Assembly: GCA_903877885.1 (NCBI GenBank)
Contig: CAIRFN010000006.1
Location: forward strand, 3,342-67,341
Origin: an uncultured Candidatus Berkelbacteria bacterium
GTDB taxonomy: Bacteria; Patescibacteriota; UBA1384; UBA12157
Length of the DNA: 64,000 nt
Direction of reading: 5' to 3'
Position numbers and translations under genes: made by a program. The notes under the pieces were generated by a model. The model was not told the origin of the DNA, searched no databases, and saw only the letters and a list, made by a program, of their open reading frames with translations. Position 1 is the stretch's first letter. The number at the start of each line of letters is the position of its first letter. Of the stretch, positions 33,955 through 57,214 are shown piece by piece.

Positions 33955-33962
33955 ATTACTTT

Positions 33963-33991
33963 CTCCTCCAGGGTAACTTGGAGGTTTTTTT
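33963..33991 (+). terminator. Rho-independent terminator (CCTCCAGGGTAACTTGGAGG + T7)
   Basis: Hairpin plus T-run; the stem sequence resembles the REP core CCTCCAGGG. Confidence 0.55.
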
Positions 33992-34035
33992 GTTGATTTT
34001 TTTAGGAATTTAAGGTATGATGGAGATACAAGTGT

Positions 34036-34122
34036 GCCCAGGTGGCGGAATTGGTATACGCTTAGCCTTGAGGTGGCTATGGGAGCAATCCCGTGCAGGT
34101 TCAAGTCCTGTCCTGGGCACCA
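34036..34122 (+). tRNA. tRNA-Leu(GAG), type II, CCA encoded
   Basis: GCCCAGG...TAGCC-TTGAGGT-GGCTA, long variable arm, GCAGG-TTCAAGT-CCTGT, CCTGGGC-A-CCA. Confidence 0.8.
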
Positions 34123-35633: not shown

Positions 35634-36108
35634 TTTGTCCCTCCTTTGTTAATTGCTTTAATGTTTTGCCATCAAAAACTTGTTTTTCGTACTCGTCAAG
35701 CCAAGAATCTAAAAGAAATTGAAACTCGGCGATATAGACTCCCAATTCTTCATCAGGAACTCCAGCCACTTCTTCCCCAAGAATCTTTCTGGCTTTTTGA
35801 AGCTTGGTCTCTTCTTTCTTGTCTAAAAATATGGTGTTAAGCGTCTCTTCATCAATGTTTCTTCTGTCGTTAGTAAAATCCATCATTACAGCGGGGCTTT
35901 TTATGGAAGGTGGAACGGTAGGGCGGTTAATTATTGGGATATCCAATAAGGCTGTGCTGCCGGTATTTTGTTCAATTGATTTTAATTGAGATAACTGCAA
36001 TTTAACCTCCAAAGTATCGCTATATTTATATAATACTATCGTAATAGCGATACTGTCAAGAGGGTGAATTGAACCTGTAATAAGTGCGAGAAGTGGCTTT
36101 GAGATCAA
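35611..36108 (-). CDS. Hypothetical protein upstream of the recombinase (possible excisionase/RDF position)
   Basis: 165 aa ORF overlapping the recombinase start; function not recognisable. Confidence 0.3.
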   Translation of the reverse strand: MISKPLLALITGSIHPLDSIAITIVLYKYSDTLEVKLQLSQLKSIEQNTGSTALLDIPIINRPTVPPSIKSPAVMMDFTNDRRNIDEETLNTIFLDKKEETKLQKARKILGEEVAGVPDEELGVYIAEFQFLLDSWLDEYEKQVFDGKTLKQLTKEGQNGAFYSR

Positions 36109-36249
36109 AATATTATAAGTTATCCACAGGACTTTTTGTGGTCATAATAAGCAAGCAAAAAATTGACAATTTATGAGATCATCTGTTAGTATGCAGGTGA
36201 ATTAACAAGCGATAATTTCTAAAGTAAAACGGAGGGGAAGGAGTATGTT

Positions 36250-39129
36250 TTGGACATATTTTCCTACCTCGAACAAAACGATCAGATCAAAAACTATCAG
36301 CCGACACCTCAAGACGGCAAATTCGTGGCCGATCTGTTTAACGCCTTTCACCACCACCTGCCACTCGATTTTCTTCAAAAGTCATTCGTGATCTCTATTT
36401 TATTTCCGGGAACCGTTTCGTCAAAATTAGCCTTTTTCTCATATTTATCATCTCTATCGTCGCTCTCATTCGCGCCGATTTTTGTAATTATCGGTATTAT
36501 CGCTCTCTTATTTATCCTTTACCTGATATTCAAATTGTTCGGCCACAAACTGATTAAAAAAGAACCTCTTGCTTATTTGATGCTCACGTTTCCATCCAAT
36601 ACTGAAAAGTCCGCCTACGCGACAGAGCAGCTCTTTTCGCTCTTTCACGCTTTAGCCGGACAGCGTTCCTTTTTTCAAAGAATTTTAAGATCAAAAACAG
36701 AGTATTCTTTGGAAATCGTGTCGAGCCGAGAATTGGGAATAAGATATGTTATGAGTGCGCCCGCTTCCGATGCCGAAATCATCGCAAAAAGCCTTATCTC
36801 TTTTCTACCAGGTCTCTCAATCGAGGAAATTGAAGATTATCTGCCGGACAATTTTGTCTCCGATTCTTTTAAAGAAAAACAAAAAGCGGGTATCGGTATC
36901 ACCGAACTGAAATTAAAAAACGATTTCGCACTGGCCTTGGAAAAAAACAAGGTGTTGGCTGAACACGACACGATCGCCTATTTAGCCGGCAATATGACCA
37001 AACTCGCATCTGGCGAAGAGATGGTTTTTCAAATCGTCTTGACGCCCATAACCGATTCCGCCCACGGTAAAATTATGAAGCGCGTCTTAGAAATCGAAAA
37101 TAAAATTTATACCAATCAACCGCTATCGGGGGAACTGCACAAAAGTGCAATCGAGGCATCTTTATCGTGGCCGGCGGCTGTCTTCGAATGGCTCGGTGGT
37201 CTTGTCGGAGCTTTTGCCAGAACCGTTTCGGACGTGATTGGGCATTTTTTAGGTGGCTCGCAGGAATATCATGATCCGGTTTCGCAACGGTCAACTCTTT
37301 TAGCCGCCCAGCGTCAGGAGATTATTAACCCTTACGAACAGGAACTGCAAATAAGGGTTAAGGAAAAACTGGGTCAGCCGATGTTTGAAACCTCGCTTCG
37401 CCTATATGTTCGCGTCAAAAACAAGCGAGAATACGGTTTAAGAGTTTCAGGCTTTCTGGCCTCGCTCGGACAGCTTTCAGGTCGTCATCAATCATTGGTC
37501 GTCAAATCTCCGGGGTGGTTTACTTCGGTCAAGTCTGTACTCTCGGCGTTCCAGGGCCGAGAATTGTCTTCGGCCCACAATCCGATTCTTTCGGCCTCGG
37601 AACTGGCCGATCTCTATCATTTCCCATATGCAGGCACGACCAAAACCGAGGATCTTGTTAAAAGCAAAAATAATCCGCTGCCGGCGCCGTTATCGTTTAA
37701 ACAGGCTTCGACCGAGTTTGATAATGTCTTTGCTAAAAACCTTTACGGAGGCTCCGAAACTTTAATCGGACAAACCCTGGAAGAACGCCGGCGCCACACC
37801 TATATTTTAGGGGCGACGGGTTCGGGTAAAACAACCTTGTTGTCGACCATGATTTACAACGATATTGCCAATGGCAAGGGGGTAGCCGTAGTCGATCCGC
37901 ACGGACAACTGGTGGAGAATCTTTTACGGGTAATTCCCGAAGAACGCATCAAAGACGTGGTATGGTTCGCGCCCGACGACGACGGATATCCCGTCGCCTT
38001 AAACTTGTTGGAACTCGAATATGATAACACTCTTACTTCGAGTCAGCTTGAAAAACGAAAGTCTCTGGTGGTAAGCAGTATCGTCTCCATTATTAAAAAG
38101 TTTTATCCCGTAAATTCGTTCGGCCCGAGAATGGAATATGTTTTAAAAAACGCGATTCTAACCGCTCTGGAAACGCCTGAGCCGACACTGCAAACGGTTC
38201 TCGACATTTTAACCAAAGAGGCTTATCGCAAGGAGGTGATGAAAACTTTGGAAAACGAAACTTTAAAAGACTACTGGACTTACGAATTCGCCAAATACGG
38301 CGACCTTCAAAGAAACACTGTCGTCTCTCCGATTACCAACAAAATCGGCGGACTCTTAAGCTCGCCGATTAATCGCAACATCCTGCTTCAAAAGAAAAGC
38401 AAGTTGGATTTTGACGAGGTTTTGAATTCTGGTAAAATTCTGCTCTGTGATTTAAGCAAAGGTAAAATCGGCGAAGACGAATCAAGCTTTTTCGGCTCGC
38501 TGGTCATTGCCAAAATCCAGTTGGCGGCGCTCTCCAGGGCCAGGATTCCGGAAGAAAAACGAAAAGATTTTTACCTCTATGTCGACGAGTTTCAAAACTT
38601 CGCGACTAAAAGTTTCGGCGAATTGGTCTCGGAAGCCAGGAAATACCGGCTTTCAACGATTTTGGCGCATCAGTCGATTTCGCAGATCGAAGACCAAAAT
38701 ATCGTCAAAACGATCCTAGCCAACGTCGGCACGGTCATTTGTTTTAGAACGGCCAATCCCGAAGACGAGCAATTCATTCTGCCGATCTTTTCGCCCGAAG
38801 TTTCCAAACACGAAATCGGAAACTTGCCGCTTTACAACTTTTACCTGAAAATATCGGTGGGCAAACCCCAAGACGCTTTCCTAGCACAGGCAGATGATTT
38901 TACAATTGAAAGTAACGAGAAAACCGCCGAAGACACGATCAACCGTTCTCGCAAACAATACGCCGTGCCAGTCGAGACATTAAAGAAACCGCGGGCGGTG
39001 AAAACGGAGAATGAAGAAATCAAAAAAGTTAAGACTAAAGCTATCGCAAAAAAACCGATCAAACAGCCGGAAACCGAACCCGAATTAGAGCCGAAAACGG
39101 AGTCCGAAAACGGGAAAATTTGGTGGTAG
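36250..39129 (+). CDS. Membrane-anchored FtsK/HerA/TraG-VirD4-like P-loop ATPase (candidate DNA-translocation or coupling protein)
   Basis: 959 aa; N-terminal TM helices, Walker A ILGATGSGKTTLL, Walker B-like FYLYVDEFQNFA, Lys/Glu-rich C-terminal tail. Confidence 0.55.
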   Translation: MDIFSYLEQNDQIKNYQPTPQDGKFVADLFNAFHHHLPLDFLQKSFVISILFPGTVSSKLAFFSYLSSLSSLSFAPIFVIIGIIALLFILYLIFKLFGHKLIKKEPLAYLMLTFPSNTEKSAYATEQLFSLFHALAGQRSFFQRILRSKTEYSLEIVSSRELGIRYVMSAPASDAEIIAKSLISFLPGLSIEEIEDYLPDNFVSDSFKEKQKAGIGITELKLKNDFALALEKNKVLAEHDTIAYLAGNMTKLASGEEMVFQIVLTPITDSAHGKIMKRVLEIENKIYTNQPLSGELHKSAIEASLSWPAAVFEWLGGLVGAFARTVSDVIGHFLGGSQEYHDPVSQRSTLLAAQRQEIINPYEQELQIRVKEKLGQPMFETSLRLYVRVKNKREYGLRVSGFLASLGQLSGRHQSLVVKSPGWFTSVKSVLSAFQGRELSSAHNPILSASELADLYHFPYAGTTKTEDLVKSKNNPLPAPLSFKQASTEFDNVFAKNLYGGSETLIGQTLEERRRHTYILGATGSGKTTLLSTMIYNDIANGKGVAVVDPHGQLVENLLRVIPEERIKDVVWFAPDDDGYPVALNLLELEYDNTLTSSQLEKRKSLVVSSIVSIIKKFYPVNSFGPRMEYVLKNAILTALETPEPTLQTVLDILTKEAYRKEVMKTLENETLKDYWTYEFAKYGDLQRNTVVSPITNKIGGLLSSPINRNILLQKKSKLDFDEVLNSGKILLCDLSKGKIGEDESSFFGSLVIAKIQLAALSRARIPEEKRKDFYLYVDEFQNFATKSFGELVSEARKYRLSTILAHQSISQIEDQNIVKTILANVGTVICFRTANPEDEQFILPIFSPEVSKHEIGNLPLYNFYLKISVGKPQDAFLAQADDFTIESNEKTAEDTINRSRKQYAVPVETLKKPRAVKTENEEIKKVKTKAIAKKPIKQPETEPELEPKTESENGKIWW

Positions 39130-39293
39130 GCGTTACCACCAACAAATGACGGGTTTTGAGATTAAAACAATGGAATGTTTTCGCATTAACCTTATACAAG
39201 GAGGAGTAGGTAGGGATTGGCATAAGTATAAGTAAAAAAACAAAAATACAAACAAACTGCAACACAACAACATCAATCAAATTAAAAACTCCA

Positions 39294-40070
39294 ATGACTA
39301 AACTACCCTCAATTACCAAAACACAAGAAAATATTATCCAACTCATCTATCGCTTCAGATTTCTTAATCGAATCCAAATACAAAAATTACTCAAAATTAA
39401 ATCGGTCAGTAAACTCAATTACTATCTAAAAGACCTGACCGAAAAAGAATATCTTAAGCGATCACATGAAGATACGTTCCCAAACAAACTTCGGCCGGCC
39501 GTTTACCATATCGGCCCAAACGGGATCCGGTTTTTGAGATCGCAAGATAATTGCGAAGCCGAAGCGATCAAGAATCTTTATCGGGAAGATAATCGATCAA
39601 GCAGTTTTAGGGATTGTTGTCTTCTGCTGGCCGATATTTACCTCGGATTTGAAAACCGCCAAGACAAAGATGTCCAATCGATCATGCAGATGAGAAGCGA
39701 TTATCCGGCCCATCCGCTCAAAGATATACTTAGCGATCTCAAGCCTTCCGCCTATGTTGCCCAAAAGAAATCTGGCAAGACTAAACGGTCCTTTTTGGAA
39801 ATTTTGTACGATCTGCCGGATCAATATTTAAGGCAAAGAATAAAGCAATATCTTAAATTTTATCGAGGAAGCGTTTGGGAATCAGAAACGAAAACGGATT
39901 TCCCGACGATTATGATCGTCTGCCCCAATGACAGAGTTCTGGCCTACGTCAGACATTACGTCAAAACAAAGCTCGCACAATTCGACGGATCGGATTTGAT
40001 CATCGATTTGACCACGTCCGATAAGGTTAAAGAGTTTGGCCTTACCAGTGATATTTGGAAGAAAATTTAA
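39294..40070 (+). CDS. Hypothetical protein with N-terminal winged-helix region (possibly replication-relaxation-like)
   Basis: 258 aa; ...ENIIQLIYRFRFLNRIQIQKLLKIKSVSKLNYYLKDLTEKEYLKR HTH-like N-terminus. A weak call. Confidence 0.3.
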   Translation: MTKLPSITKTQENIIQLIYRFRFLNRIQIQKLLKIKSVSKLNYYLKDLTEKEYLKRSHEDTFPNKLRPAVYHIGPNGIRFLRSQDNCEAEAIKNLYREDNRSSSFRDCCLLLADIYLGFENRQDKDVQSIMQMRSDYPAHPLKDILSDLKPSAYVAQKKSGKTKRSFLEILYDLPDQYLRQRIKQYLKFYRGSVWESETKTDFPTIMIVCPNDRVLAYVRHYVKTKLAQFDGSDLIIDLTTSDKVKEFGLTSDIWKKI

Positions 40071-40086
40071 GCAATAAATTTCGCTT

Positions 40087-40794
40087 GTGTTTCTATCGGC
40101 GATAAAATTTGCTATAGTTTGGGCAAGAAAGGATAATATGGAAATATTCGTTGAAGAATATCTGGCGAAATCGGTGCCGAATACAAAACAGTGGGTTGAA
40201 AAAATTATTGACAAATGCGCCAGGAGAATAAAATTTAAGGATGCCAAAATCGGTGTTTTTCTAACGCCGGGATCGAATGGCTTGGAAGATGTCAACGGTA
40301 TCGGAGGGTACTGCCCTTCGAGCGCTCTTGTCGAGATAAGCGTCGATTTAAATCATCCGAATTTTGATTTTGATTCGCTTAAATTAACTTTGGCTCACGA
40401 ACTTTACCATCTCGCGCGCCGACAATCGGGAATCAAAATCGGCGAGAGTACGGTTTTAGAATGCCTAATCAGCGAAGGGTTGGCCGATCGATTTGTCTAC
40501 GAAACTTACGGATTAACACCCGTCTGGATTTCTAAACTAGGTGGAACGGATGCGGCCAAGTTACTAAAGAAAATATCCCCAATTTTGGATGAAAAAATTG
40601 ATGATGAAATTTACAACGATTGGTTTTTAAGCGGTTCAAAGAAACTAGGCGTTGCTAAATGGTCGGGCTACTCGCTTAGTTACGCGTTAGTGTCGCAGAT
40701 ATTAAAGAAGGATAAAAAGTTGAATTCCATATCATTTTTAGATGTTCCCGCGAAAGAAATCGCCGATATAACCACTTTGTATGATAAAGTATGA
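40087..40794 (+). CDS. HExxH-motif protein (putative zinc-dependent peptidase, DUF2268-like)
   Basis: LAHELYHLARRQ contains HELYH (HExxH); 235 aa. Confidence 0.4.
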   Translation: MFLSAIKFAIVWARKDNMEIFVEEYLAKSVPNTKQWVEKIIDKCARRIKFKDAKIGVFLTPGSNGLEDVNGIGGYCPSSALVEISVDLNHPNFDFDSLKLTLAHELYHLARRQSGIKIGESTVLECLISEGLADRFVYETYGLTPVWISKLGGTDAAKLLKKISPILDEKIDDEIYNDWFLSGSKKLGVAKWSGYSLSYALVSQILKKDKKLNSISFLDVPAKEIADITTLYDKV

Positions 40795-40845
40795 ATTTCA
40801 ACCACAAAAAAAGCCCGGAAGTCTGGAAACTCCCGAGCCTTTTAA

Positions 40846-41178
40846 TTAGTACTCTTTGGCAAGCATTATAGTCACAACCCGTTTGCATGTATCTGAAAGC
40901 GGATCCTCAAAATGTGTTAAAGTCGGATCAAAGTAATCGATCTTCCAAAGTACTCTTTGACCTTTCCAATCAAAATATCCCAAATCGTGCCAGCCGTAAA
41001 AATCATCATGCTTGTTAAACTTATTAAAAGAACGGACTGCATAAAGCAATTCTTCAATATCCGGTAATTCAGCCGCCTTGTTAGTTAATACAACATTTAA
41101 ACCTAGCTGTCGGGCAACATCGTTGCGCCTCGCCATCTCTTTGAACTTATTTTCCTGATTATCCATTTTAACCTCCAA
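40846..41178 (-). CDS. Uncharacterised protein, paralog of the adjacent ORF
   Basis: 110 aa; shares ...LLxAVRxFxxFxxxDDxYGxHDxG...WxxQRVxWKIDYxD...DPxSxxCxRxxTxMLAxEY with the 41240..41650 ORF. Confidence 0.45.
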   Translation of the reverse strand: MEVKMDNQENKFKEMARRNDVARQLGLNVVLTNKAAELPDIEELLYAVRSFNKFNKHDDFYGWHDLGYFDWKGQRVLWKIDYFDPTLTHFEDPLSDTCKRVVTIMLAKEY

Positions 41179-41239
41179 TAATTAAATTAAATTAAAGAAA
41201 AAGGCCTGAAAGTCACCACAACTTCCAGGCCCTCATCTC

Positions 41240-41650
41240 TCAATACTCCTCAGCCAGCATCACCGTTAACCTGCGCTGGCACTCCGGAGATGTCGGGTCT
41301 TGCCAATAGCCCAATGATTGATCGTAGTAATCAATCTTCCAAAAAACTCTTTCCCGCTGCCAAATGAGCGAACCGAAGTCATGCTCACCATAGGGATCAT
41401 TGTCATCGGTAAACCGATCGTAATCGCGCACCGCGGCTAGTAACCCTTCGGGATCCGGTAAGTCCCGTGCTCCAGAAGTCATTAACACTCCATATCCCAT
41501 CCTACGGAACCCATCGTTCTTTTGCGCCACGTCCAAAGTTTGTACACAGTTCATTTTGACCTCCATTCTATTATCTTTAATCTCAAGAACAAGCGTATCG
41601 ACCTTCCGCCTGTCGACTGGAAGGCAAGGACAGCACGCTAAAATAGTCAA
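41240..41650 (-). CDS. Uncharacterised protein, paralog of the 40846..41178 ORF (N-terminally extended)
   Basis: 136 aa; C-terminal 100 aa align with the neighbouring ORF. Confidence 0.45.
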   Translation of the reverse strand: MTILACCPCLPVDRRKVDTLVLEIKDNRMEVKMNCVQTLDVAQKNDGFRRMGYGVLMTSGARDLPDPEGLLAAVRDYDRFTDDNDPYGEHDFGSLIWQRERVFWKIDYYDQSLGYWQDPTSPECQRRLTVMLAEEY

Positions 41651-41833: not shown

Positions 41834-42214
41834 ATGTCAAATTTAGAAAGTGAACAAGGAGAATTTAAATCAGAAGAAGAAAGACAAGCCGCAGAAGGTT
41901 TTGAAGCACCGGTTAATGGCCAACAAGAAATCAAAGAAACTGAAAATATCACTGTCCCGGAAAGAAATGGAAGAAATTTTATTCAGTCTATGCGAGAAAA
42001 ATTTCCCAAGATATCCGATGAAGACAAAAAAGCAATTACGGCAGGCATCCTGAGTGGTCTTATGGCGGTTACGGGAGTTGGCATGGCTCTTGGCGCAGGC
42101 ATTGATAAAGGGCTTACCGGAGCAGAAGCAATAGAGTTGGCTTCAGCTGGTGCTGGTTTTATGATGACGGGAATAATTGCATTAGGATCATTAGGGCAGA
42201 GAAGAACGCAATAA
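41834..42214 (+). CDS. Small acidic protein with Gly-rich hydrophobic C-terminus
   Basis: 126 aa, RBS AAAGGAG; N-terminal GEFKSEEERQAAEGFE motif shared with the 43444 ORF. Confidence 0.4.
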   Translation: MSNLESEQGEFKSEEERQAAEGFEAPVNGQQEIKETENITVPERNGRNFIQSMREKFPKISDEDKKAITAGILSGLMAVTGVGMALGAGIDKGLTGAEAIELASAGAGFMMTGIIALGSLGQRRTQ

Positions 42215-42227
42215 AAAGGAGATTATA

Positions 42228-42530
42228 ATGAACAATGATTTGAATTTAATCGAATTATCAAATAAAACTAAAAATGTACTAGTATCGGTTGGTTTTTCAG
42301 AAGAAGAAGCGAACAACCAATTAATGGACTTGTCGGAAATTATTACATCCGCTTTTGCTCAAAAAATGACAGACAAATCACTGTTAAACAACCCCGAAGA
42401 GACAAGAAGAATATTTTTTGAAACCGCTAAACCAATAGTTAAAGAATATCTTCAGAATATTAGTCAAAGTCTGAACGACGACGAAAAGAAAAAGCTATTT
42501 GATCAAATTAATAACTTGCCCGAAAAATAG
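42228..42530 (+). CDS. Hypothetical small protein
   Basis: 100 aa, RBS AAGGAG; no recognisable motif. Confidence 0.35.
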   Translation: MNNDLNLIELSNKTKNVLVSVGFSEEEANNQLMDLSEIITSAFAQKMTDKSLLNNPEETRRIFFETAKPIVKEYLQNISQSLNDDEKKKLFDQINNLPEK

Positions 42531-42561
42531 ATAAACGACGAAAATAAAGAAGGAGACAAAG

Positions 42562-43428
42562 ATGGGCGAATCACTGGGCTACATGCCAGAGGAAGAAATT
42601 GCAAAATTTGAAAAAGAACCTACGCAAGCTGAGCAACCTGTCGGGAATGAGCCCGGCGACCGGTTTGACGAACTTTTACTTGAACAGTTAGGACAATTTG
42701 AAAGAACTCAAACAGAACAGTTTCAAGCTACGAATGAAAGTTTGGAAAATTTTGTCAGAGAAATTAATGAAAAATTTTCTGCCGAAGATCAGAGAGAAAT
42801 CTACGATGCACTAACTTTAATGTTTACTCTGCATATTTATCAAAAAGATCGGCCAGAAGGAAGCCCTTATGTCAGTCACCCTCTGGCTGTTGCCCAAAAA
42901 GCCATCGGTATGTCGCCCAACCCGGACAAAGGATTGGTTATCGCAGCCTTAATGCATGATTCGGTTGAAGATCAAGCCGATAAATTAGCGTCTCTGACCG
43001 AGCAGACTGACACATCTCTAACGGACGAGCAAAAAGCTTTGACGGAAATTCAAACCAAATACGGTGAGAGAGTGGCAAATATTGTCTCACATCTATCAAA
43101 TCCCGATTTTGATGCCGTTTTAGCTAGTCAAGGTATTACCAAAGAAAATTCTCAATATAAAGAATTAAAAAATAAACTTTATGCCGAACATGTAGCGGAA
43201 GCCATTGAAGATCCTGATGTTTTGCGGATTAAATTGGCGGATTTTTCCGAAAACGCTTTAAAATTATCAAAATTACCAACCGAGACAGATGCTCAGATAA
43301 AGCAAAAACAAAAATATATTGATAAATACGTGCCGGTTATGAAAATTTTCGCCGATCGCCTGCAACGCGACAATCTTTTTCCGGAATATCAAACAGCATT
43401 AATTGAAGAATATAACAAATTAAAATAA
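42562..43428 (+). CDS. RelA/SpoT-type HD-domain protein (small alarmone hydrolase-like, (p)ppGpp pyrophosphohydrolase fold)
   Basis: ...YDALTLMFTLHIYQKDRPEGSPYVSHPLAVAQ...VIAALMHDSVEDQ matches the SpoT/Mesh1 HD motifs (HxxQ…YxxHP…HD…ED). Confidence 0.65.
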   Translation: MGESLGYMPEEEIAKFEKEPTQAEQPVGNEPGDRFDELLLEQLGQFERTQTEQFQATNESLENFVREINEKFSAEDQREIYDALTLMFTLHIYQKDRPEGSPYVSHPLAVAQKAIGMSPNPDKGLVIAALMHDSVEDQADKLASLTEQTDTSLTDEQKALTEIQTKYGERVANIVSHLSNPDFDAVLASQGITKENSQYKELKNKLYAEHVAEAIEDPDVLRIKLADFSENALKLSKLPTETDAQIKQKQKYIDKYVPVMKIFADRLQRDNLFPEYQTALIEEYNKLK

Positions 43429-43443
43429 CTAAAAAGGAGAAAA

Positions 43444-44067
43444 ATGTCAATTGAAGACAATGGCGAGTTCAAGTCTAAAGAAGAAAAACAAGCGGCCGAA
43501 CAGTTTGAATTAGAACAAGAGAATACTTCTTCACAAAACGAATTACAAACAGATCCTGTACTCGGTGAAGTCGATGCTTTTCTTGAAAGATGCAGATCAG
43601 GGCTTTCACAAGAAGAATCTAAACGTACAGGCAACGGATCAATCATATCTGAAATTCGTAATGCTACTCAAGAATGGAAAGATTTAGCCGCCAAATACAA
43701 TGAGTTATCCAATCAGATTCAAGGAGAAGATAGGACTGCGACAGAAGCAGAGTGGTCTGAACTAAATAAACTACAAAATAAGATAACTAAAAAACAAGCA
43801 GAAGCTATCTCAAATTACAATAAAGTTGCTAACGGCCTTTTACTGCCAAATAAAACAGAGCAGCATTCTAGAGGTGAAGCAGAAAAATCAAGACAAGAGG
43901 TTGACGATGCATACTGGCATATGCGACATGCCGAGCTTAATGGCGATCCCGATGATTTAACCGAGGCAAGATCTAATTACAAAAAATTATCCGAGGAACA
44001 TCAAACTCGTTCAAGCGATGTCAGACAAGACGAGAGAGATTTCGACGATCAAATGTCTGGAAGATAA
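43444..44067 (+). CDS. Hypothetical acidic protein (shares N-terminal motif with the 41834 ORF)
   Basis: 207 aa; MSIEDNGEFKSKEEKQAAEQFE... Confidence 0.4.
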   Translation: MSIEDNGEFKSKEEKQAAEQFELEQENTSSQNELQTDPVLGEVDAFLERCRSGLSQEESKRTGNGSIISEIRNATQEWKDLAAKYNELSNQIQGEDRTATEAEWSELNKLQNKITKKQAEAISNYNKVANGLLLPNKTEQHSRGEAEKSRQEVDDAYWHMRHAELNGDPDDLTEARSNYKKLSEEHQTRSSDVRQDERDFDDQMSGR

Positions 44068-44086
44068 CAAATAGAGAAGGAGAAAA

Positions 44087-44602
44087 ATGGACGAACAGCA
44101 AAATGAAAAAGAGCAAGCTTCGTTTGAAGAAAGCTTGAGCGATGAGCAAAGAAAAAAAATGGCAGGACAGATTACCGAATTGGGTGGCCAATTGCATGAC
44201 GAATGGCGCGCACCAAGAAAACAAGAAGACGGCACATTCGAGCCGCGAATAAAAACGACAAAAGATCAAGCTTGGATTGAAAAAAACGGAACCGACCAAA
44301 TAGATATCGCAAATAACTCTTATGAAAATTTACCGGAAGATTGGAAAGGCGAAAACAAAGCTTCAGCCGAAGTAGCAATTCCGGAAATTTATAAAGCTAT
44401 TTCTGAAGGAAAAGAATTAGATGATCAATTTATTGAAGAAACGAGCGATATAATTCATCAAAAATGGCTTGAGAGAAACGGTAGCTGGGCTCCCGCAGAA
44501 CAAAATAAACCATATGCGGAACTTTCCGAAGAAGAAAAAGAAAAAGACCGCGCAATTGTCAGAAAAGCGGTTGAAACTTATAAAGAAAACGCTACCAACT
44601 AA
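44087..44602 (+). CDS. Hypothetical acidic protein
   Basis: 171 aa, RBS GAAGGAG; followed by a terminator. Confidence 0.4.
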   Translation: MDEQQNEKEQASFEESLSDEQRKKMAGQITELGGQLHDEWRAPRKQEDGTFEPRIKTTKDQAWIEKNGTDQIDIANNSYENLPEDWKGENKASAEVAIPEIYKAISEGKELDDQFIEETSDIIHQKWLERNGSWAPAEQNKPYAELSEEEKEKDRAIVRKAVETYKENATN

Positions 44603-44623
44603 AGATAAAAACATGTAAATTGA

Positions 44624-44666
44624 CCCGCAAAGTAAATCGCAAGATCGAAATGCGGGTTTTTGTTTT
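44624..44666 (+). terminator. Rho-independent terminator
   Basis: ACCCGCA...TGCGGGT stem + TTTTGTTTT. Confidence 0.55.
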
Positions 44667-44893
44667 GGCCTGTTTGTTTTATAAATGTCATTTTTAGATC
44701 TAAGCCGTAAATGACATTTTCCGCGAGAGCGAGCCGAAGCGAGATCTCTATACAATTAGAAGACAGGTGGAAGAAAACCCTTGATTTTTCTTGAATTATC
44801 CGTAGCTTTTCGCTACGATAAGATTGAGATTATTATACAAAATCATTTGATTAATTCTGGTGGATTCCCTGAAACAATAAGGAGAATAAAAGG

Positions 44894-47800
44894 ATGGGTG
44901 AATTTCAAAATCATAGTGTAGAATTTGATAATTTAGGTGGATTAACTTCTGAAGATCGGCAAGCAATTTTGATGCGAGGCGATTTAAGAAAGCGCAGTCA
45001 AGAACTCAAGGTTAACGCGCTTAATTTAAATCCACCAGAAAGTACGCCTGAACACAAAGCTTACTACGAACGAATTTTATCTTTAGTAAACCGTGAGGCA
45101 GATGGCGAAGAAAAGATGGATCCAGCTCAAGCCGAAGCCACTTTGGATGAAAAAGAAAAAGGTATGCGTGTTAAGATCGCCACCATGGGAGAAATTGCTC
45201 CTAACTTTGGCGGCTACTTGTATGCTAACTTAGCAAAATATGAGCAACTTGCCGGACAAGATTTTTCAGAGGATTTATCCAAATCAAAAGAATACATGGA
45301 CCGAGCGACTCATATTCCAAAACTCGTGCCTTCAAACCTGCTGCCGGATGCAATTACGCTTGGTATTCAAAAAAGATTTTTAGATACTCAAGAATTGCCA
45401 AGCAAAGAAAAAATTGCTCAAGCCGCCCAAATGGATCCAGAACTTATTAAATCATATGCTTTAGTTCTCCATGAAAATGAACGTGAAGATTTTCTAAAAC
45501 TTATCCCTGAGGATCAACGCCGCCAGATTGGTATTGAACTAGACACATCGGTGTCGAGTGTTTTACACCAATCGTTAATTGAAAAAAATACACCAGAAGA
45601 AGAGCAACGCCGCCAAGTCAGAATGCGTTTATTTAGAGAGTTAAGAAGCTCTCTATCAGAAACTGATCCGTCGGACAAAAAAACAGTTCAATTAATGGGT
45701 GAAGCTTTAGGAACTCTTGGCGAAGATGCCAGACAGTTGATCTTGGAACTCATTCGGGATGAAACGGATAGTCGAGAAGAAGGTGTAGATAGACAAACAG
45801 ATCATTTGCCCCGAATCATGAAAGTGATGATAGATAATTTTGATGATTGGCGTGGCAACGATATTATTTTGCAAACAGCAGCGTCTCCAGAATTAAATCA
45901 TCATATGTCTATTTATCTATTTGGCAAACTGGTAGATAAAGGATACTTACCAAAAGATGTTGCCGATTGGTGGAACACAAGAAAAACAACTGCTTCCAAT
46001 GAGGGTCGTGAGCCAGATGATGAAAAATTTAGGCTCGATATCCTAAAAGGTACGGTTGATGAATTAGGAGTTATTCCTAATAAAGAAATTTTGGAATTCA
46101 TTTCAAAGGATGAAAACTGGCAAGGTGATGATGGGCAAACAGTTCCGGTTTCCGAGCGTTTTGAAAGAATTGCCTCATCTCAAGCAGAATTCAGTGGAGT
46201 TAAGTCTAACAGTGAGCTAGTAGATTTACTAAAAAATAATGAAAACAAAGCGATGATTTATTTCCTTCTTCACGGCGGAGATGATCGCTTTAATTTAATT
46301 AACAATTATAGTTTTGATAAATTTAAGGAAATGCTTGGACTTATATCCGATTTGGAAATAAATGAACGACCGATTCAAAGTTTCAAAGAAACCTTGCTAA
46401 ATTCTGGAATGAACGAGGGTCAAGCAAATGATGTTATTACCAGACTAAGAGCAGGCCATTTTCCACTGCCAAATTCACAACAGGCATATCAAGAGGTTAG
46501 CTTTGAAATCTCGGAAAATGCTGCTTTAAATAATGCTAACGGCGAAATCGGTCAGGTTTTGGGTAAAGATCAGTTGGGCGTGGTTTTAACTTTCCCAATG
46601 TATCGTGAATACTTGGAAGCCGACGGGAGCGAACAAGCACAAGAAATGTTTGCCAGAATGCAGCAAGCCACTACTTTTACCGACAGACAGGCAATAATTG
46701 CCGAGATAAACGGATTATATCCGGATTTTCAAGAGAGAATTAAAAACGATTTGCAAGATTCTTGGATTAAATTCGGCGATAAAATGGTTATTGAAACAAC
46801 TCTGGATCAAGTTTTAACCAGCGATCAAATCCAGATTCATGGCGAAGAATTATTGCCTAAACTAGATGCTAAAAGAATTGATTTAAAACGCATAAATAAA
46901 GAATTGCTTATTGCCTTAAAGAGTGAAAATAGAAATGTTTCGGATCTAAACAGTGAAATTTCTCGTAAAAAGAAAGCCAGAACTGGCCTTGAACAAGGAT
47001 TGGCCAGGCAAACTGATGTAGGCAAGCGCGGTGAGCTTCAAAGAAAAATTGACGAAATCGATTCAGATATTGCTAACTTAGAAACTCGTCGTGCTGCAGT
47101 TGGAGAAATGAAAGTTGATGATCGTTTTACGGGATTAAGCAAGGAAGAAAAAGAGGCTGAAGTTGATCGCTTAAGCCAAGAAATAATTGCTTTGACCGAA
47201 AAAAGCCCGAGCGCGATTTTTACATTCATTACCATGCAGGTTTTAGGCGAACAAAGGTTAAGAGAAAACGATATTACTTTAGTCAAAGAAATGGAAAGCC
47301 ATTTGCAGGGACCGTTTCAAACTATCAATGATGTTCTGACCTATGAACGACCAAAAACAGAAAGCAAAAAACGAACCCGTGTTGGTTTACAATATTTGGA
47401 TAAAGTTGATCGTTTGGCAACTATGGTCCGTTTTGCCGACAGTAAAATTTGTTGTTTTTCCAGCTCTAATTATGAGATGCGGGTTCAACATAATACGCCT
47501 AATAAAATTTGGGTGGCTTCGATTAATAAAGACCCAATGAGTTTTGTTCTTTCGATGGAAATGCCTCAAGTCCAAACTGATCAACCAGGCAAAAAGGTAA
47601 ATGAAAACATCGGGTTTATCTTTGGCAGTTTTGCTCAAGATAATGAGGGCAAACTTGGCGTCATGATGAACGGCATTTACTACGCCCCTGGCATTGAAGA
47701 CGCAAGACAAGTCGAACAAATTATGGGTGGAGTTGAGAAAATTTTCGAGGGCTTACCCATTAATACCGAAGTGATAGCAACCCAATATGGCGGTTCAGTT

Positions 47801-47986
47801 AAAATGCCGGAGAGTTTTTCAACGGAACCGATTGAGATGACACGATTAAGAGCTATTGACGACGGTCGTGGTAGGCCGGAGTCAATGATATATGATGATT
47901 TGGCGACTGGTACCGATTTAAACAAACCTCATATGTATGGCGGCTCCGCTTGGCACAGATCGCTAGAAGGTAGGACTAATGGGTGA
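44894..47986 (+). CDS. Large hypothetical protein (1030 aa) heading the tandem paralog array
   Basis: Long ORF with a good RBS (AAGGAGAATAAAAGGATG); its stop overlaps the start of the first paralog. No domain recognisable by eye. Confidence 0.5.
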   Translation: MGEFQNHSVEFDNLGGLTSEDRQAILMRGDLRKRSQELKVNALNLNPPESTPEHKAYYERILSLVNREADGEEKMDPAQAEATLDEKEKGMRVKIATMGEIAPNFGGYLYANLAKYEQLAGQDFSEDLSKSKEYMDRATHIPKLVPSNLLPDAITLGIQKRFLDTQELPSKEKIAQAAQMDPELIKSYALVLHENEREDFLKLIPEDQRRQIGIELDTSVSSVLHQSLIEKNTPEEEQRRQVRMRLFRELRSSLSETDPSDKKTVQLMGEALGTLGEDARQLILELIRDETDSREEGVDRQTDHLPRIMKVMIDNFDDWRGNDIILQTAASPELNHHMSIYLFGKLVDKGYLPKDVADWWNTRKTTASNEGREPDDEKFRLDILKGTVDELGVIPNKEILEFISKDENWQGDDGQTVPVSERFERIASSQAEFSGVKSNSELVDLLKNNENKAMIYFLLHGGDDRFNLINNYSFDKFKEMLGLISDLEINERPIQSFKETLLNSGMNEGQANDVITRLRAGHFPLPNSQQAYQEVSFEISENAALNNANGEIGQVLGKDQLGVVLTFPMYREYLEADGSEQAQEMFARMQQATTFTDRQAIIAEINGLYPDFQERIKNDLQDSWIKFGDKMVIETTLDQVLTSDQIQIHGEELLPKLDAKRIDLKRINKELLIALKSENRNVSDLNSEISRKKKARTGLEQGLARQTDVGKRGELQRKIDEIDSDIANLETRRAAVGEMKVDDRFTGLSKEEKEAEVDRLSQEIIALTEKSPSAIFTFITMQVLGEQRLRENDITLVKEMESHLQGPFQTINDVLTYERPKTESKKRTRVGLQYLDKVDRLATMVRFADSKICCFSSSNYEMRVQHNTPNKIWVASINKDPMSFVLSMEMPQVQTDQPGKKVNENIGFIFGSFAQDNEGKLGVMMNGIYYAPGIEDARQVEQIMGGVEKIFEGLPINTEVIATQYGGSVKMPESFSTEPIEMTRLRAIDDGRGRPESMIYDDLATGTDLNKPHMYGGSAWHRSLEGRTNG

Positions 47987-48878
47987 AAATTTAGAGCCTT
48001 TTGAAATTCAACGCGAGGCATTAGCTGAAAGATTAAAACTCAAAGAACAATGGGAGTCACAGATTAGTATTCTTAATGAAACAGGAATTCTACAATTGCT
48101 CCCAGAAAGTCAGGAGCTAGGGATCGTTGGTATTGATGGTGAAGAATATCCAATTCCAGATTATAAAGAAATCATAGATCGTCTTACACCAGAAAAAGCA
48201 CAAATTCTGGAGCAGAAAATTGAACAAGGGTTTAGTAAAATGCTATTAGTGCCTTTTGGTATGTCCATGGAGACCTTAGCTCAAAGGTACAGAGAAGTAG
48301 TTCTTAAAAAAAGTAATGAAGAAACTCTTTTGGATACTGATGGTTTAAGGATTGAGTTAGACAAAAATAACCCCTTCCCAAACCTAATATCCCTGAACAC
48401 TGACATCGATAAAAGACTGTCCTACTATCCAAGTAATTTTGAGGAGCAAGAGGGCTTCACTAAGTCTGAGATACTCAGTAGAGGTGCCGGGTTTAAGATC
48501 GAGTTTATCGAGGATCGACCAGACTTATCTGATAACCGGCAAGCTCAAGGTGGAAGATTCAGTCCACCATCCAGGAGTATGCCAGCCAGGTATCTAGAGA
48601 TAATCCAGAACGATGAAAACATGTCGAATGAACAAGGATGGACGATGGAAACGTGGTTAACATATGCTATTACGAATTTAAAAGAAAGAAACCAACAAAT
48701 TGATAGTAATCGTTGGGGAAAGTTTTCTTGGCTTTTGGGCGCCTATTTCCCAGCACAAGCTCCTAGTGTGCCAATAGTGATGTATGCAGGTTGGTCTAAA
48801 GGCAAAGCAGAATTATTTAGTGGTGAATTTGATGATAGGTCAACCAACGCTAGTCTACGTACTTCAGTGGAGATATAA
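47979..48878 (+). CDS. Tandem paralog 1 of the 7-member family (no variable repeat)
   Basis: Conserved N-terminus LEPFEIQREALAERLKLKEQWESQISILNETGILQLLPESQELGIVGIDGEEYPIP; C-terminus ...ASLRTSVEI. Confidence 0.6.
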   Translation: MGENLEPFEIQREALAERLKLKEQWESQISILNETGILQLLPESQELGIVGIDGEEYPIPDYKEIIDRLTPEKAQILEQKIEQGFSKMLLVPFGMSMETLAQRYREVVLKKSNEETLLDTDGLRIELDKNNPFPNLISLNTDIDKRLSYYPSNFEEQEGFTKSEILSRGAGFKIEFIEDRPDLSDNRQAQGGRFSPPSRSMPARYLEIIQNDENMSNEQGWTMETWLTYAITNLKERNQQIDSNRWGKFSWLLGAYFPAQAPSVPIVMYAGWSKGKAELFSGEFDDRSTNASLRTSVEI

Positions 48879-48880
48879 CT

Positions 48881-49798
48881 ATGAATAATGAATCATTACA
48901 ACCATTTGAAATTCAACGTGAAGCGTTAGCTGAGCGATTGAATCTAAGAGAACAGTGGGAATCACAAGTTAAAATCTTGAATGAGACTGGTATTTTGGAG
49001 ATCCTTCCAGAGGCCCAAGAGTTGGGAATCATTGGTATTGACGGTCGAGAGCATCCAGTACCAGATTTTCAGGAAATTATGTCTCGAATTTCGCCGGAGC
49101 AGATGGAAGTCTTAGAGAAAAAGAATGAGCAAGGATTCAATAAAATGGTCCTAGTTCCTTTTGCTGTACCGCTAGACATATTGATTGATCGATACAAAAA
49201 GCTTCTTATTGAAAAAGATGCGGAAGGATCACTCTCATCAACTGATGGTTCAAAACTTAATCTCGATCGCGACCAACCAATCTATGTTTGGGACAAATAT
49301 ACCGGTGCTGATGCAAGCGGTGAGTTAGTTTATTTCCCGAATACATTTGATCAACAAAATCACGGTGGTAAAACAAAAAATACCCTAATACAAGAAGGTA
49401 AATCTTGGCAATTTGAATTACTTGAAGAAAATATTAATATCCCTGCTAAAGGTCAGGGAGAGATACTTGACGGCCGCAAACAACTAGAAGCCGGACAATC
49501 ACCAAATCAATATTTAAAAGAATTACAAATCGATCCTCAATATCAAAATGAGGTCGGCTTGACACCAGAAGCATGGTTGGTTTTAGCTATAACCCAATTA
49601 AAAGAAAACCATGGCCAAATTGACGATTATCAAGGTCAAGGCAAAATAAATTTTCTTACGGGTGCCTATTTCCCCGGTTCTGACAGTGTCCCGCGCGCGC
49701 GCTGGAGCCGTGACGGTCGTCGGGCGTTCTTGGACAGGAGCGTTCCCTCTGGCTCGCTTTCGAGCATTGGGTGTCGCTCCTCGGTGGAAATTCAGTAA
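48881..49798 (+). CDS. Tandem paralog 2; DGR target gene carrying variable repeat VR1 at its 3' end
   Basis: Same conserved N-terminus. The last ~38 codons (…VPRARWSRDGRRAFLDRSVPSGSLSSIGCRSSVEIQ) are the VR copy of the template repeat. Confidence 0.7.
   Translation: MNNESLQPFEIQREALAERLNLREQWESQVKILNETGILEILPEAQELGIIGIDGREHPVPDFQEIMSRISPEQMEVLEKKNEQGFNKMVLVPFAVPLDILIDRYKKLLIEKDAEGSLSSTDGSKLNLDRDQPIYVWDKYTGADASGELVYFPNTFDQQNHGGKTKNTLIQEGKSWQFELLEENINIPAKGQGEILDGRKQLEAGQSPNQYLKELQIDPQYQNEVGLTPEAWLVLAITQLKENHGQIDDYQGQGKINFLTGAYFPGSDSVPRARWSRDGRRAFLDRSVPSGSLSSIGCRSSVEIQ
49676..49789 (+). repeat. DGR variable repeat VR1
   Basis: ~114 bp matching the template repeat at 54708..54821, except at the template's adenine positions (all 17 differences fall on them). 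Confidence 0.8.
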
Positions 49799-49893
49799 TT
49801 TGATATTTGGCTTTTAAACTTTCTTTTTTCTTTATCTTTGATTCGGTATCCCGCCTTCGGCGGGCCACTGCAAAAATTTTAAAGGAGATAGAT

Positions 49894-50781
49894 ATGGAGA
49901 GTAATATGAGTGAAAATCTTCAACCATTTGAAATACAGCGCGAAGCACTTGCTGAACGGCTAAAACTCAAAGACCAGTGGGCATCACAGGTTAAGATGCT
50001 GAATGAAGCGGGTGTTTTGGAATTGCTTCCAGAGAGTCAGGAGCTAGGAATTATCGGAATTGATGGACAAGAATATGCAATACCTAGTTATGAACAAATT
50101 TTAGGTCGTATTACTCAAGGAAAAGCTGAGATTTTAGAAAATCAAACAGAAAACGGTTATAAGCAATTAATTTTAACTCCTTTCGCAATGCCTTTGAGGC
50201 AACTGTGTAAATTAGTTGAAGGATCATTTAAGAAAGTCTTATCAGAAAACCAAGTTGTTGATGCTTATGGAAGTGATGAAAGAATCAATTCTGATAACTT
50301 TATTGAAGATAATGGAAATATTCTCGATTCCGATATTAACGGAGAAATGGTTTACTACCCAAACTCAGACGATAGCAAAGACGGTTTGACAAAAATAGAT
50401 TGCATTAAAGAAAATGGTGGTTGGGAAATTGATTTTATTGCCAAAGAACCTCAGAAATACATACAAGATATCAACAAGCAAAAAAAGGCCATGGTGCAAG
50501 GTGGATTTAGAGGATTAACTCTTGAAAGCTGGTTGACTCAGTCAATGAATTTTTTCCAGAACGAGAAAAAGTTTTCAGATTATCTCGAACCATGTCTTTT
50601 GGCGGGATCGTCTCTGCGAGAGAAGAGGACTATCCCGGCAGCATGGTTTGCTGATAATCGATCTAATTACAAAGGTAAATATTTAGTAATAAAAACTTTA
50701 GAAGAAAATCGTAATCAAAATAAAGCATTTGGCGGTTTTTCGCAAACTGACGGAAATGCGCGTTTCAGCGTGAATTTATAA
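49894..50781 (+). CDS. Tandem paralog 3
   Basis: Start chosen at ATG 49894 after RBS AAAGGAG; the ORF track starts earlier at 49807. N-terminus MESNMSENLQPFEIQREALAERLKLKDQW... Confidence 0.6.
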   Translation: MESNMSENLQPFEIQREALAERLKLKDQWASQVKMLNEAGVLELLPESQELGIIGIDGQEYAIPSYEQILGRITQGKAEILENQTENGYKQLILTPFAMPLRQLCKLVEGSFKKVLSENQVVDAYGSDERINSDNFIEDNGNILDSDINGEMVYYPNSDDSKDGLTKIDCIKENGGWEIDFIAKEPQKYIQDINKQKKAMVQGGFRGLTLESWLTQSMNFFQNEKKFSDYLEPCLLAGSSLREKRTIPAAWFADNRSNYKGKYLVIKTLEENRNQNKAFGGFSQTDGNARFSVNL

Positions 50782-50790
50782 AGGGAAAAT

Positions 50791-51675
50791 ATGAATGAAT
50801 CCTTACAACCATTTGAAGTCCAAAGAGAAGCTTTAACTGAAAGGCTAAAACTCAAAGAGCAGTGGGAATCGCAAATAAAAATACTTAACGAAGTTGGAAT
50901 TCTTGAAATTCTACCTGAAAGTCAGGAGCTGGGAATCATTGGAATTGATCAAAAAGAATATCCAATCCCCAATTATGAAGATATTCTTAATAAAATTACT
51001 CAAGAACAAGCAGACTTAGTAACCCAAAAAACTGAACAGGGGTTTAATAAGTTAATATTGGTTCCCTTCGCTAAATCCCTTCAAGAAACCATAGAACTCT
51101 ATGCTAGATTATTAGTCCAAAAAAAACACGAAAAGACCCTTGTAGGGGCTGAAAACGAAGAATTTGACCTCGATATCAATAATCCTATCGTTGATATGAC
51201 TAAAAATGATTCTTTGTTTTATATTCCATCAAATGGAAAAAGATTCACGAAATCGGAATTTCTTGTAAGCGAAATGCGTTACCCGGGTTGGCAAGTCGCA
51301 TTAATCGAAGATTCTCCCGTCCCGTTCGAGAAAGATTCAGATAAAAAGGAATATGGCTACAAACAACCAAATGGCGATTTAGTAAGAGATTGGAGTCATC
51401 AGCTAAAGCTAATGAAAGAGAACGAATCTTATATCGGCGAAGAGGAAATATCTCCAGAGGCATGGCTTGCATATGCCATCACTAACTTAAAGGAAAAAAA
51501 CCAGCAGATTGATTTTCAAAATGAATCAATTGACAGGTGTTGGCTTGGTGCTTTTAGTAAAAAAGGAGAAACTGTTTACTCTTTATTTAAAAACAATCAA
51601 ATTAACTTTCATATCTATTCTCCCTTTGAGAGGGAGAAATCAAAAGCTATTTTTAGGTCGGTCGTACAGATTTAA
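50791..51675 (+). CDS. Tandem paralog 4
   Basis: MNESLQPFEVQREALTERLKLKEQWESQIKILNEVGILEILPESQELGIIGID... Confidence 0.6.
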   Translation: MNESLQPFEVQREALTERLKLKEQWESQIKILNEVGILEILPESQELGIIGIDQKEYPIPNYEDILNKITQEQADLVTQKTEQGFNKLILVPFAKSLQETIELYARLLVQKKHEKTLVGAENEEFDLDINNPIVDMTKNDSLFYIPSNGKRFTKSEFLVSEMRYPGWQVALIEDSPVPFEKDSDKKEYGYKQPNGDLVRDWSHQLKLMKENESYIGEEEISPEAWLAYAITNLKEKNQQIDFQNESIDRCWLGAFSKKGETVYSLFKNNQINFHIYSPFEREKSKAIFRSVVQI

Positions 51676-51704
51676 ACTATTTAAATTTAGATTGAAAAGG
51701 TAAT

Positions 51705-53506: not shown

Positions 53507-53515
53507 AGGAATATT

Positions 53516-54821: not shown

Positions 54822-54842
54822 GTTCTTTTTGTTTTAAGAAAG

Positions 54843-56222: not shown

Positions 56223-57214
<992 letters not shown>

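Follow-up and report, generated by a model that had tools for sequence, protein, structure and literature searches.

A stand-alone RSH-type hydrolase with a tagged N-terminus and a recurrent RyR-repeat-like partner in a five-gene cluster beside an integrated island of a Berkelbacteria genome

A 64,000-nucleotide stretch of DNA from an uncultured Candidatus Berkelbacteria bacterium (contig CAIRFN010000006.1; the whole stretch is hereafter called the window) carries a plus-strand cluster of five genes at 41834-44602. The 288-aa open reading frame (ORF) at its centre is predicted to encode a stand-alone hydrolase of the RSH family, that is, a small alarmone hydrolase (SAH). It is preceded by ORFs of 126 and 100 aa and followed by ORFs of 207 and 171 aa, the last of which (o171) belongs to a family whose members recur beside relatives of the hydrolase. 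The 126-aa and 207-aa proteins, and in degenerate form the hydrolase itself, begin with a variant of a short N-terminal tag. These five ORFs had been listed in an earlier note, made from the letters of the window alone, and all of them are present as it gave them (Table 1).

An AAGGAG-type ribosome-binding site lies 6-9 nt before the ATG of each of the five ORFs, the last gene is followed by a terminator-like hairpin, and the next gene begins only at 44894. On the basis of the spacing, the ribosome-binding sites, the hairpin and the distance to the next gene, we treated the five genes as one unit, which probably ends at the hairpin. Promoter and terminator consensus scans of the cluster gave counts that were not above shuffled expectation, and Rfam found no riboswitch or other RNA inside or upstream of the five genes. 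All five proteins, including the hydrolase, have an isoelectric point (pI) of 4.6-4.7. Thus the description of the four flanking ORFs in the earlier note as small and highly acidic holds for their pI. The acidity is not special to them, however, as 13 consecutive proteins encoded at 41834-54421 have a pI of 4.5-5.0, whereas the median of the remaining 52 ORFs of the window is 8.9. Additionally, the 126-aa protein is acidic in its N-terminal half only, and the 171-aa protein is a conserved partner with a predicted RyR-repeat fold, which had been missed.

Table 1. Features of the window and loci that hold relatives of the hydrolase. Positions are those of the window unless a locus (L) is named; percentages are identities to the window hydrolase; HD, hydrolase gene.
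Feature	Position	Strand	Remarks
126-aa ORF	41834-42214	+	N-terminal tag, acidic linker, hydrophobic Gly-rich C-terminal half
100-aa ORF	42228-42530	+	Acidic, untagged
288-aa ORF	42562-43428	+	Predicted stand-alone RSH-family HD pyrophosphohydrolase, SAH type
207-aa ORF	43444-44067	+	Acidic, N-terminal tag; between the hydrolase gene and its usual partner gene
171-aa ORF (o171)	44087-44602	+	Conserved partner; two RyR-type repeats predicted to form one RyR-repeat-like domain
Terminator-like hairpin, then T-rich tail	44652-44673	+	Consensus scan only; 50 nt past the last gene of the cluster
Integrated island	33490-41650		High GC content at third codon positions (GC3); outside the five-gene unit
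tRNA-Leu(gag)	34036-34122		Near the left end of the island
Large serine recombinase	34101-35633		Pfam
TrwB/TraG-type T4 coupling protein (T4CP), 959 aa	36250-39129		Pfam
1030-aa acidic orphan protein	44894-47986		No match in any library
Seven tandem paralogues, 294-324 aa	47979-54421		All acidic, no Pfam family
Template repeat	~54687-54865
Variable repeat	49655-49833		3' end of paralogue 2
Variable repeat	54278-54456		3' end of paralogue 7
bAvd gene	55884-56222	-
Reverse transcriptase, two overlapping ORFs in different frames	56203-56844 and 56810-57214		RVT_1 in the former, YGDD in the latter
L092, hydrolase 72%			pgk-HD-tig-clpP
L094, hydrolase 64%			pgk-HD-(o171 homologue)-tig
L093, hydrolase 73%			pgk-HD-(o171 homologue)
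L010, hydrolase about 36%			rpmB-HD
L012, hydrolase 38%			HD-(o171 homologue)-rplJ-rplL
L008, hydrolase about 40%			Near the house-cleaning genes Maf, NUDIX and Ham1
L004, hydrolase P0012, 53%	L004 78-9705		Adjoins an IS200-type transposase and an RHS toxin cluster
L007, 245-aa gene matching Pfam Tad4 (PF25186)	L007 3649-4386		HTH_38 gene before it; ~1.2 kb past the hydrolase/partner pair
L095, hydrolase 59%	L095 292-4395		Three unannotated neighbours share its N-terminal motif

The 288-aa ORF contains the signature HxxQ..R..SPYVSHPLAVA..AALMHDSVED, which the earlier note had taken for the HD signature of a (p)ppGpp hydrolase without a synthetase domain. As tests of this assignment it had named a search with PF13328, an alignment to look for the catalytic His-Asp dyad, and a comparison with non-alarmone HD families. 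The protein matches Pfam HD_4 (PF13328) at 48.9 bits, compared to a cut-off of 27.2 bits, with an E value of 7.9e-13. The NCBIfam model TIGR00691, which is 687 positions long, aligns to the ORF over model positions 7-136 only, and the score of 50.5 bits is far from the family cut-off of 499 bits. Neither Pfam nor NCBIfam scans found a SYNTH (RelA_SpoT), TGS or ACT domain in the protein. Its credible domain matches are all of the HD type, with an overlapping generic HD model staying below its own cut-off. When we searched PDB sequences with phmmer, every match to E 0.06 was to the hydrolase domain of a Rel, RelA or SpoT protein, to MESH1 or to an SAH, and the three unrelated rows were all weaker than this value. 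The best sequence matches include TIGR00691, 5xnx (E 1e-7) and the SpoT entries 7qps and 7qpr.

Conservation within the family points to an intact active site. In an alignment of 35 homologues, residues H91, Q94, R97, H106, H132, D133, E136, K224, D227 and N231 are invariant and D137 is nearly invariant. The motifs H..Q..R..G.PY..HP (H91, Q94, R97 and PY-x-x-HP) and K..D...N (K224, D227 and N231) are both conserved. HMMER alignments place the set of Mn2+ ligands (His, His-Asp, Asp) and the Glu-Asp pair in register with the motifs of Rel hydrolases, and the His-Asp dyad is among them. Using the register of 1vj7, we take the equivalent residues of RelSeq to be R44, H53, H77, D78, E81, D82, D144 and N148, which are the Mn2+ ligands, the catalytic pair and nucleotide-binding residues of that enzyme. 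The RelSeq numbering is said to follow Hogg et al. 2004. Judged on the conserved residues, the window hydrolase appears to be catalytically intact.

The predicted fold leads to the same family. An AlphaFold2 model generated from the homologue alignment has a mean pLDDT of 90.7, and in a Foldseek search of the PDB the first 32 matches were without exception to RSH hydrolases, among them MESH1, RelH, the Leptospira SAH, SpoT, Rel and a (p)ppApp hydrolase. Target-normalised TM-scores to MESH1 and to the Corynebacterium and Leptospira SAHs are 0.72-0.76. The best structural matches are human MESH1 with PAPS (9chy) and human MESH1 with NADPH (5vxa). Because all of the tests named in the earlier note came out in its favour, with the best matches in both sequence and fold being RSH hydrolases, the assignment stands: by sequence and by model, the 288-aa protein is an RSH-type small alarmone hydrolase without a synthetase domain.

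Similar to MESH1, C. glutamicum RelH (7qod), the Leptospira SAH (7qoe) and the P. aeruginosa SAH (6yvc), the window hydrolase is a single HD_4 domain, and it has in common with them the H..HD..D metal site, the ED pair, the RxxGxPY..HP motif and the fold. In contrast, its identity to these proteins is only 20-24%, and it is ~100 residues longer than a typical SAH (288 residues compared to about 180). The additional residues lie in several places. Residues 1-30 are disordered and hold the degenerate tag, two N-terminal helices (within residues 31-73) and two C-terminal helices (within residues 243-287) surround the MESH1/SAH-like core, and the segment from ED to KLAD is ~28 residues longer than in SAHs and holds the family-specific motifs LSNPDF and LYAEHV. 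The hydrolase domain of the long RSH proteins Rel and SpoT is among the best sequence matches, but the window protein lacks their SYNTH, TGS and ACT domains. Stand-alone alarmone hydrolases are well known, and we view the window enzyme as a member of an enlarged, lineage-specific SAH clade in the candidate phyla radiation (CPR). Jimmy et al. 2020 named 11 SAH subfamilies and did not mention CPR lineages in the main text, and we found nothing in the literature on SAHs in Patescibacteria. The enzyme itself is a modest addition; it is the tag and the partner protein that carry the interest.

The hydrolase family amounts to 37 clusters among 5.8 billion sequences, and its two organism-named members come from a Patescibacteria metagenome-assembled genome and from a Candidatus Daviesbacteria genome. 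A scan of a genome collection returned one relative, from Candidatus Daviesbacteria, at 44% identity. A metagenome scan with the pattern [AS]AL[LMI]HD[SAT]VE returned mostly remote HD_4 proteins, with L012 the one useful locus. Where relatives are 64-73% identical, the hydrolase gene lies directly 3' of pgk (three loci), and tig or tig-clpP follow in two of the three. The hydrolase/partner pair of L007 belongs to a relative that is 78% identical. In L004 the RHS/YD-repeat toxin is 2195 aa in length and is found with Tox-REase-9 and probable immunity genes.

Homologues of o171, which are 50-67% identical to it, lie directly downstream of the hydrolase gene in L094, L012, L007 and L093, while in the window the 207-aa ORF is interposed between the two. 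With identical contigs counted once, 5 of 11 distinct loci have an o171 homologue downstream of the hydrolase gene, either as the next gene or with one gene in between, which is far above chance for two single-copy genes. The o171 family is represented by 255 protein-cluster hits at 55-75% identity. All of the named members are Patescibacteria, and the family has no Pfam assignment.

Both weak sequence similarity and predicted structure relate o171 to the RyR repeat domain. The Pfam model RyR (PF02026) scores 15.7 bits on o171, which is below the gathering score of 27.4, and four of five family members give the same weak match. A profile of the o171 family searched against PDB sequences reaches RyR repeats at E 2.8e-4. 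In a Foldseek search of the PDB with the AlphaFold2 model (pLDDT 94.9), the first 39 matches are all RyR repeat domains (Repeat12 or Repeat34), with probabilities up to 1.00 and TM-scores of 0.45-0.54. The two repeats of o171 have the signatures (L/I)H..W and PY.EL.EEEKE.DR. These signatures and the predicted fold are those of the RyR repeat domain as found in Repeat12, in Repeat34 and in the B. thetaiotaomicron 'putative ryanodine receptor' (3nrt, 6uag). In contrast to that domain, o171 stays below the Pfam gathering score, has a TM-score of only ~0.5, and belongs to a distinct and highly conserved family.

According to the entry titles, the Foldseek matches of o171 include Repeat12 of RyR3 with ATP (6uhh) and with ADP (9l9b). 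Since ATP or ADP is bound in some of the RyR repeats of solved structure, we can reasonably infer by analogy a nucleotide-binding role for o171 beside a nucleotide hydrolase. To our knowledge, bacterial RyR-repeat proteins have no known function. Our literature search likewise found nothing on the function of bacterial RyR domains or on the pairing of a hydrolase with a RyR-repeat protein. The recurrent pairing offers a first functional lead for the o171 family, and it points towards nucleotide or alarmone biology.

The remaining neighbours are less informative. The C-terminal half of the 126-aa protein is hydrophobic and Gly-rich with two such segments, at about residues 67-90 and 97-120, and the protein is thus probably a small membrane hairpin; it has no Pfam, NCBIfam, PADLOC or PHROG match. 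The 100-aa protein has no relatives in any library or fetched locus, and the 207-aa protein has none in the related loci or in the PDB. A reading of the 207-aa protein as a type VII substrate was dropped, as its WXG100 and crAss001_48 matches were far below threshold.

The motif GEFKS.EE.QAAE.FE, which the earlier note had seen at the N-termini of the 126-aa and 207-aa proteins, is borne out by pairwise alignment: 13 of 18 residues are identical (E 9e-6). Nothing is alignable between the two proteins outside it. In the 126-aa protein this tag occupies residues 7-24 (GEFKSEEERQAAEGFE), with a profile match at residues 6-32, and in the 207-aa protein it occupies residues 5-22 (GEFKSKEEKQAAEQFE), with a profile match at residues 1-30. 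Additionally, the N-terminus of the hydrolase opens with a degenerate copy, GYMPEEEIAKFEKE, which the earlier note did not report. Clearer copies are found in relatives of the hydrolase, with YRSKEEEIAAKEF present in P0003, P0004, P0006, P0007 and P0008, and MSFEKFKPSSEEIKKAEGMMT at the start of P0025. Part of the o171 family starts with M(S)xE.YKPSSEEVAKAEGMM(S/T)DEQ. In a codon alignment of the motif, counted by hand, seven identical codons carry synonymous differences at the third position, indicating that selection acts on the tag peptide and that its conservation is one of protein sequence. The same synonymous differences led us to reject the idea that the motif arose by a recent duplication of DNA.

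To see how widely the tag occurs, we searched 1.84 billion representative proteins with a profile of 29 positions built from 19 N-termini. This search returned 8 hits at E up to 1e-3, and in all 8 the match starts with the first residue. Apart from the tag, six of these proteins, which are 133-310 aa in length, are unrelated, and they have no Pfam domains. A word-indexed search with the profile added five further instances only, all of them short proteins or fragments, and a local search of the window and of the fetched loci turned up no additional ORF with the tag. The carriers are mostly unannotated, and the few that are named are Patescibacteria. The canonical form of the tag is M-S-E-K-Y-K-P-S-x-E-E-I-x-K-A-E-x-M-M-T-D-E-Q-K-x-M-S-E-x-R-E. 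Because the profile hits all begin at residue 1 and are found on unrelated proteins, the motif shared in the window is, on sequence grounds, one form of a portable tag that occupies ~30 residues at the very N-terminus of its carriers. In L095, the hydrolase and its three neighbours share another N-terminal motif, G.S.TPEG..EW.AS.E, which suggests that N-terminal tags co-vary within a gene neighbourhood.

Short N-terminal targeting peptides include the encapsulation peptides of microcompartments and the capsid-targeting sequence of phage T4. As an analogy only, the tag resembles these peptides in being located at the extreme N-terminus of unrelated proteins and in being followed by a linker. 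It has no sequence similarity to them, no microcompartment or capsid genes lie nearby, and we claim no membership in either group. We found no link between the tag and any machinery, and our literature search found no description of this tag. It might mark unrelated, apparently Patescibacteria proteins for a common fate, such as export to a host cell, localisation or regulated turnover, with the tagged hydrolase serving as an effector by which alarmone signalling is erased beyond the cytoplasm of the cell that makes it; we hold this to be a rather distant prospect. A recognisable tag would open to testing the poorly understood question of how ultrasmall, host-dependent bacteria target or export their proteins.

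A gap of 184 nt separates the five-gene unit from the last gene of an integrated island to its left, and the earlier note had placed the unit within the element. In addition to the recombinase and the T4CP, the island contains, by Pfam, Replic_Relax, a DUF2268 Zn-protease and two divergent DUF3768 paralogues; we found no mating-pair-formation genes in it. The mean GC3 of the 8 island genes is 0.445, compared to 0.31 for the 13 genes of the acidic run at 41834-54421, which includes the hydrolase cluster, and 0.30 for the 44 genes in the rest of the window. Gene by gene, the island differs from the rest of the window (p = 2e-5) and from the acidic run (p = 3e-4), whereas the acidic run does not differ from the rest (p = 0.47). 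The five genes thus lie outside the compositional island, and their placement within the element is not upheld. Because their GC3 is host-like and because relatives of the hydrolase are found beside pgk, tig and ribosomal-protein genes, we conclude that, on balance, the hydrolase operon is native and chromosomal, located beside the island and not part of its cargo.

The earlier note had seen no cognate synthetase, and our Pfam scans agree with it, finding no RelA_SpoT synthetase in the four neighbours or in window ORFs of at least 140 aa that are not nested in a longer ORF. PADLOC gave zero matches among the ten proteins checked.

We favour a joint reading, to which we assign a probability of roughly 0.55, in which the five genes are a native Patescibacteria operon that encodes the cell's own alarmone hydrolase, its RyR-repeat partner and tag-directed proteins. 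The plus-strand operon would be situated on a Patescibacteria (CPR) chromosome immediately to the right of the integrated island. By homology, the hydrolase would bind Mn2+ through H106, H132, D133 and D227, and the E136-D137 pair would cleave the 3'-pyrophosphate of alarmones of the (p)ppGpp or (p)ppApp type. In this way the enzyme may clear the cytoplasm of its own cell both of alarmones that the cell itself makes and of those that a toxin imposes. The 171-aa RyR-repeat protein may bind nucleotide and either modulate or complement the hydrolase. The tag would probably bring the hydrolase and the 126-aa and 207-aa proteins, one of which may be at the membrane, to a common partner or place.

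Several observations weigh against this joint reading. The operon abuts the island directly and is divergent in orientation to the island DUF3768 genes, and a direct-repeat search around the island gave chance-level short repeats, with no attachment sites and no second copy of the 3' end of tRNA-Leu. Old cargo can become native in composition, so the GC3 evidence is indirect. Some relatives of the hydrolase are found in mobile or conflict contexts (the IS200-type transposase and RHS genes of L004; the HTH_38 and Tad4-like genes of L007), and members of the o171 family also occur far from any hydrolase (L098, L101), indicating that the pairing is not obligatory. The 64-kb window contains no visible (p)ppGpp or (p)ppApp synthetase. 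Lastly, the closest structures include MESH1 with NADPH and with PAPS, and judging from the model a non-alarmone substrate is possible.

In a rival reading, the hydrolase is cargo of a T4CP-bearing integrative element. It could then protect the element as a type IV antitoxin, directed at a toxic synthetase of alarmones, or as a counter-defence enzyme acting on alarmones or pyrophosphorylated tRNA that are produced by the defences of a cell into which the element moves, as the earlier note had proposed in part. Its acidic neighbours could have anti-defence roles too, such as that of DNA mimics. Acidic DNA mimics include ArdA and Ocr, and the run of small, acidic, unannotated proteins resembles an anti-defence islet. 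The SAHs of phages and toxin-antitoxin (TA) modules, including ATfaRel, PaSpo of SSU5 and PbcSpo of PVP-SE1, neutralise all toxic alarmone synthetases (toxSAS) tested (PMC7229694). The window enzyme is also a stand-alone RSH hydrolase, and by analogy the breakdown of (p)ppApp or (p)ppGpp, or the removal of pyrophosphate from tRNA, would in principle be within its reach. Of the proteins searched it alone matches a PHROG (PHROG 990, at 6e-19), and the transposase, RHS toxin and Tad4-like gene near relatives would fit such a role. The argument leans mainly on closeness to the island, however, and we consider it improbable. In contrast to the phage and TA enzymes, the window gene has no adjacent toxSAS, is not in a phage and, by both composition and the context of its orthologues, is not in the island. 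Its closest relatives with informative context lie directly 3' of pgk, which is a housekeeping gene, the window ORFs that were scanned lack a synthetase domain, and PADLOC is silent. A search of viral contigs (IMG/VR) found no relative of the hydrolase and none of the island T4CP. Matches to viral structures (BFVD) are at the fold level only, at 18-23% identity, and are no closer than cellular ones. Furthermore, one of the acidic neighbours, o171, comes from a chromosomal family spread across Patescibacteria. Thus the role as a mobile-element antitoxin or counter-defence factor, attractive as it is, has to be corrected, and a native gene beside the island is the better explanation.

An enzyme with the RSH fold could act mainly on a non-alarmone nucleotide phosphorylated at the 3' or 2' position (NADPH, PAPS), as reported for metazoan MESH1. 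Its role would then be that of a phosphatase in metabolism or house-cleaning, and the genome that encodes it might have no alarmone synthetases. The MESH1 structures at the head of the Foldseek matches, the lack of a visible synthetase in the window and the distant relative among Maf, NUDIX and Ham1 (L008) are consistent with this, and at least one Saccharibacteria genome is reported to be unable to make (p)ppGpp (PMC6031116). Most Saccharibacteria, on the other hand, are said to encode (p)ppGpp synthesis, and PMC7644958 states that MESH1 and bacterial SAHs hydrolyse (p)ppGpp and (p)ppApp too. The conserved residues of the window hydrolase are those of all alarmone hydrolases with nothing that singles out NADPH, and the linkage of relatives to the translation-related genes tig, rplJ-rplL and rpmB fits alarmone biology. 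We therefore regard a mainly non-alarmone substrate as doubtful. It is very unlikely, in our estimate, that the tag is a signal for export or delivery, by which an epibiont would send the hydrolase and its tagged neighbours into the host cell as effectors, the hydrolase erasing the stringent-response alarmones of the host. If this were true, the tagged hydrolase would act on alarmone signalling beyond the cytoplasm of its producer. The placement of a portable tag at residue 1 of unrelated proteins, the disordered residues 1-30 ahead of the folded enzyme and the clustering of tagged genes (in the window and, with the other motif, on four neighbouring genes in L095) could all be explained in this way, and the thirteen acidic proteins and an array of paralogues diversified by a retroelement are located in the same stretch. 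Known signals of type IV secretion systems (T4SS) are C-terminal, however, and no observation connects the tag with secretion machinery. The 126-aa protein, which is tagged, resembles a membrane hairpin and not a secreted protein, tagged hydrolases are found in housekeeping contexts, and within the o171 family the tag is confined to some of the members. The T4SS-like machinery of Patescibacteria is thought to serve functions other than conjugation (PMC12102498), which is a point in favour of export.

Downstream of the five-gene unit, the acidic run continues with the 1030-aa orphan and the seven tandem paralogues, whose first 300 nt are 64-72% identical to those of paralogue 1. Of the 26 adenines in the template, 17 are changed in each of the two variable repeats, and as far as the repeat end hardly any other base differs. 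A variable repeat that matches the template is present in two of the seven paralogues only. Because the mismatches concentrate at template adenines, beside bAvd and a split reverse transcriptase, we identified the region 47979-57214 from its sequence as a diversity-generating retroelement. The split in the reverse transcriptase could be a frameshift, a sequencing error or the mark of a decayed gene.

Two further features of the window lie outside these regions. A group I catalytic intron was found by Rfam at 60437-60664 (51.9 bits compared to a gathering score of 50), between an ORF containing a helix-turn-helix (59732-60424) and an ORF at 60823-61245. An IS200-type Y1 transposase (24950-25621) and a LAGLIDADG endonuclease (26146-26805) are located between tRNA-Cys and tRNA-Gly, and the stretch that holds them, 24950-26886, has a very low GC content.

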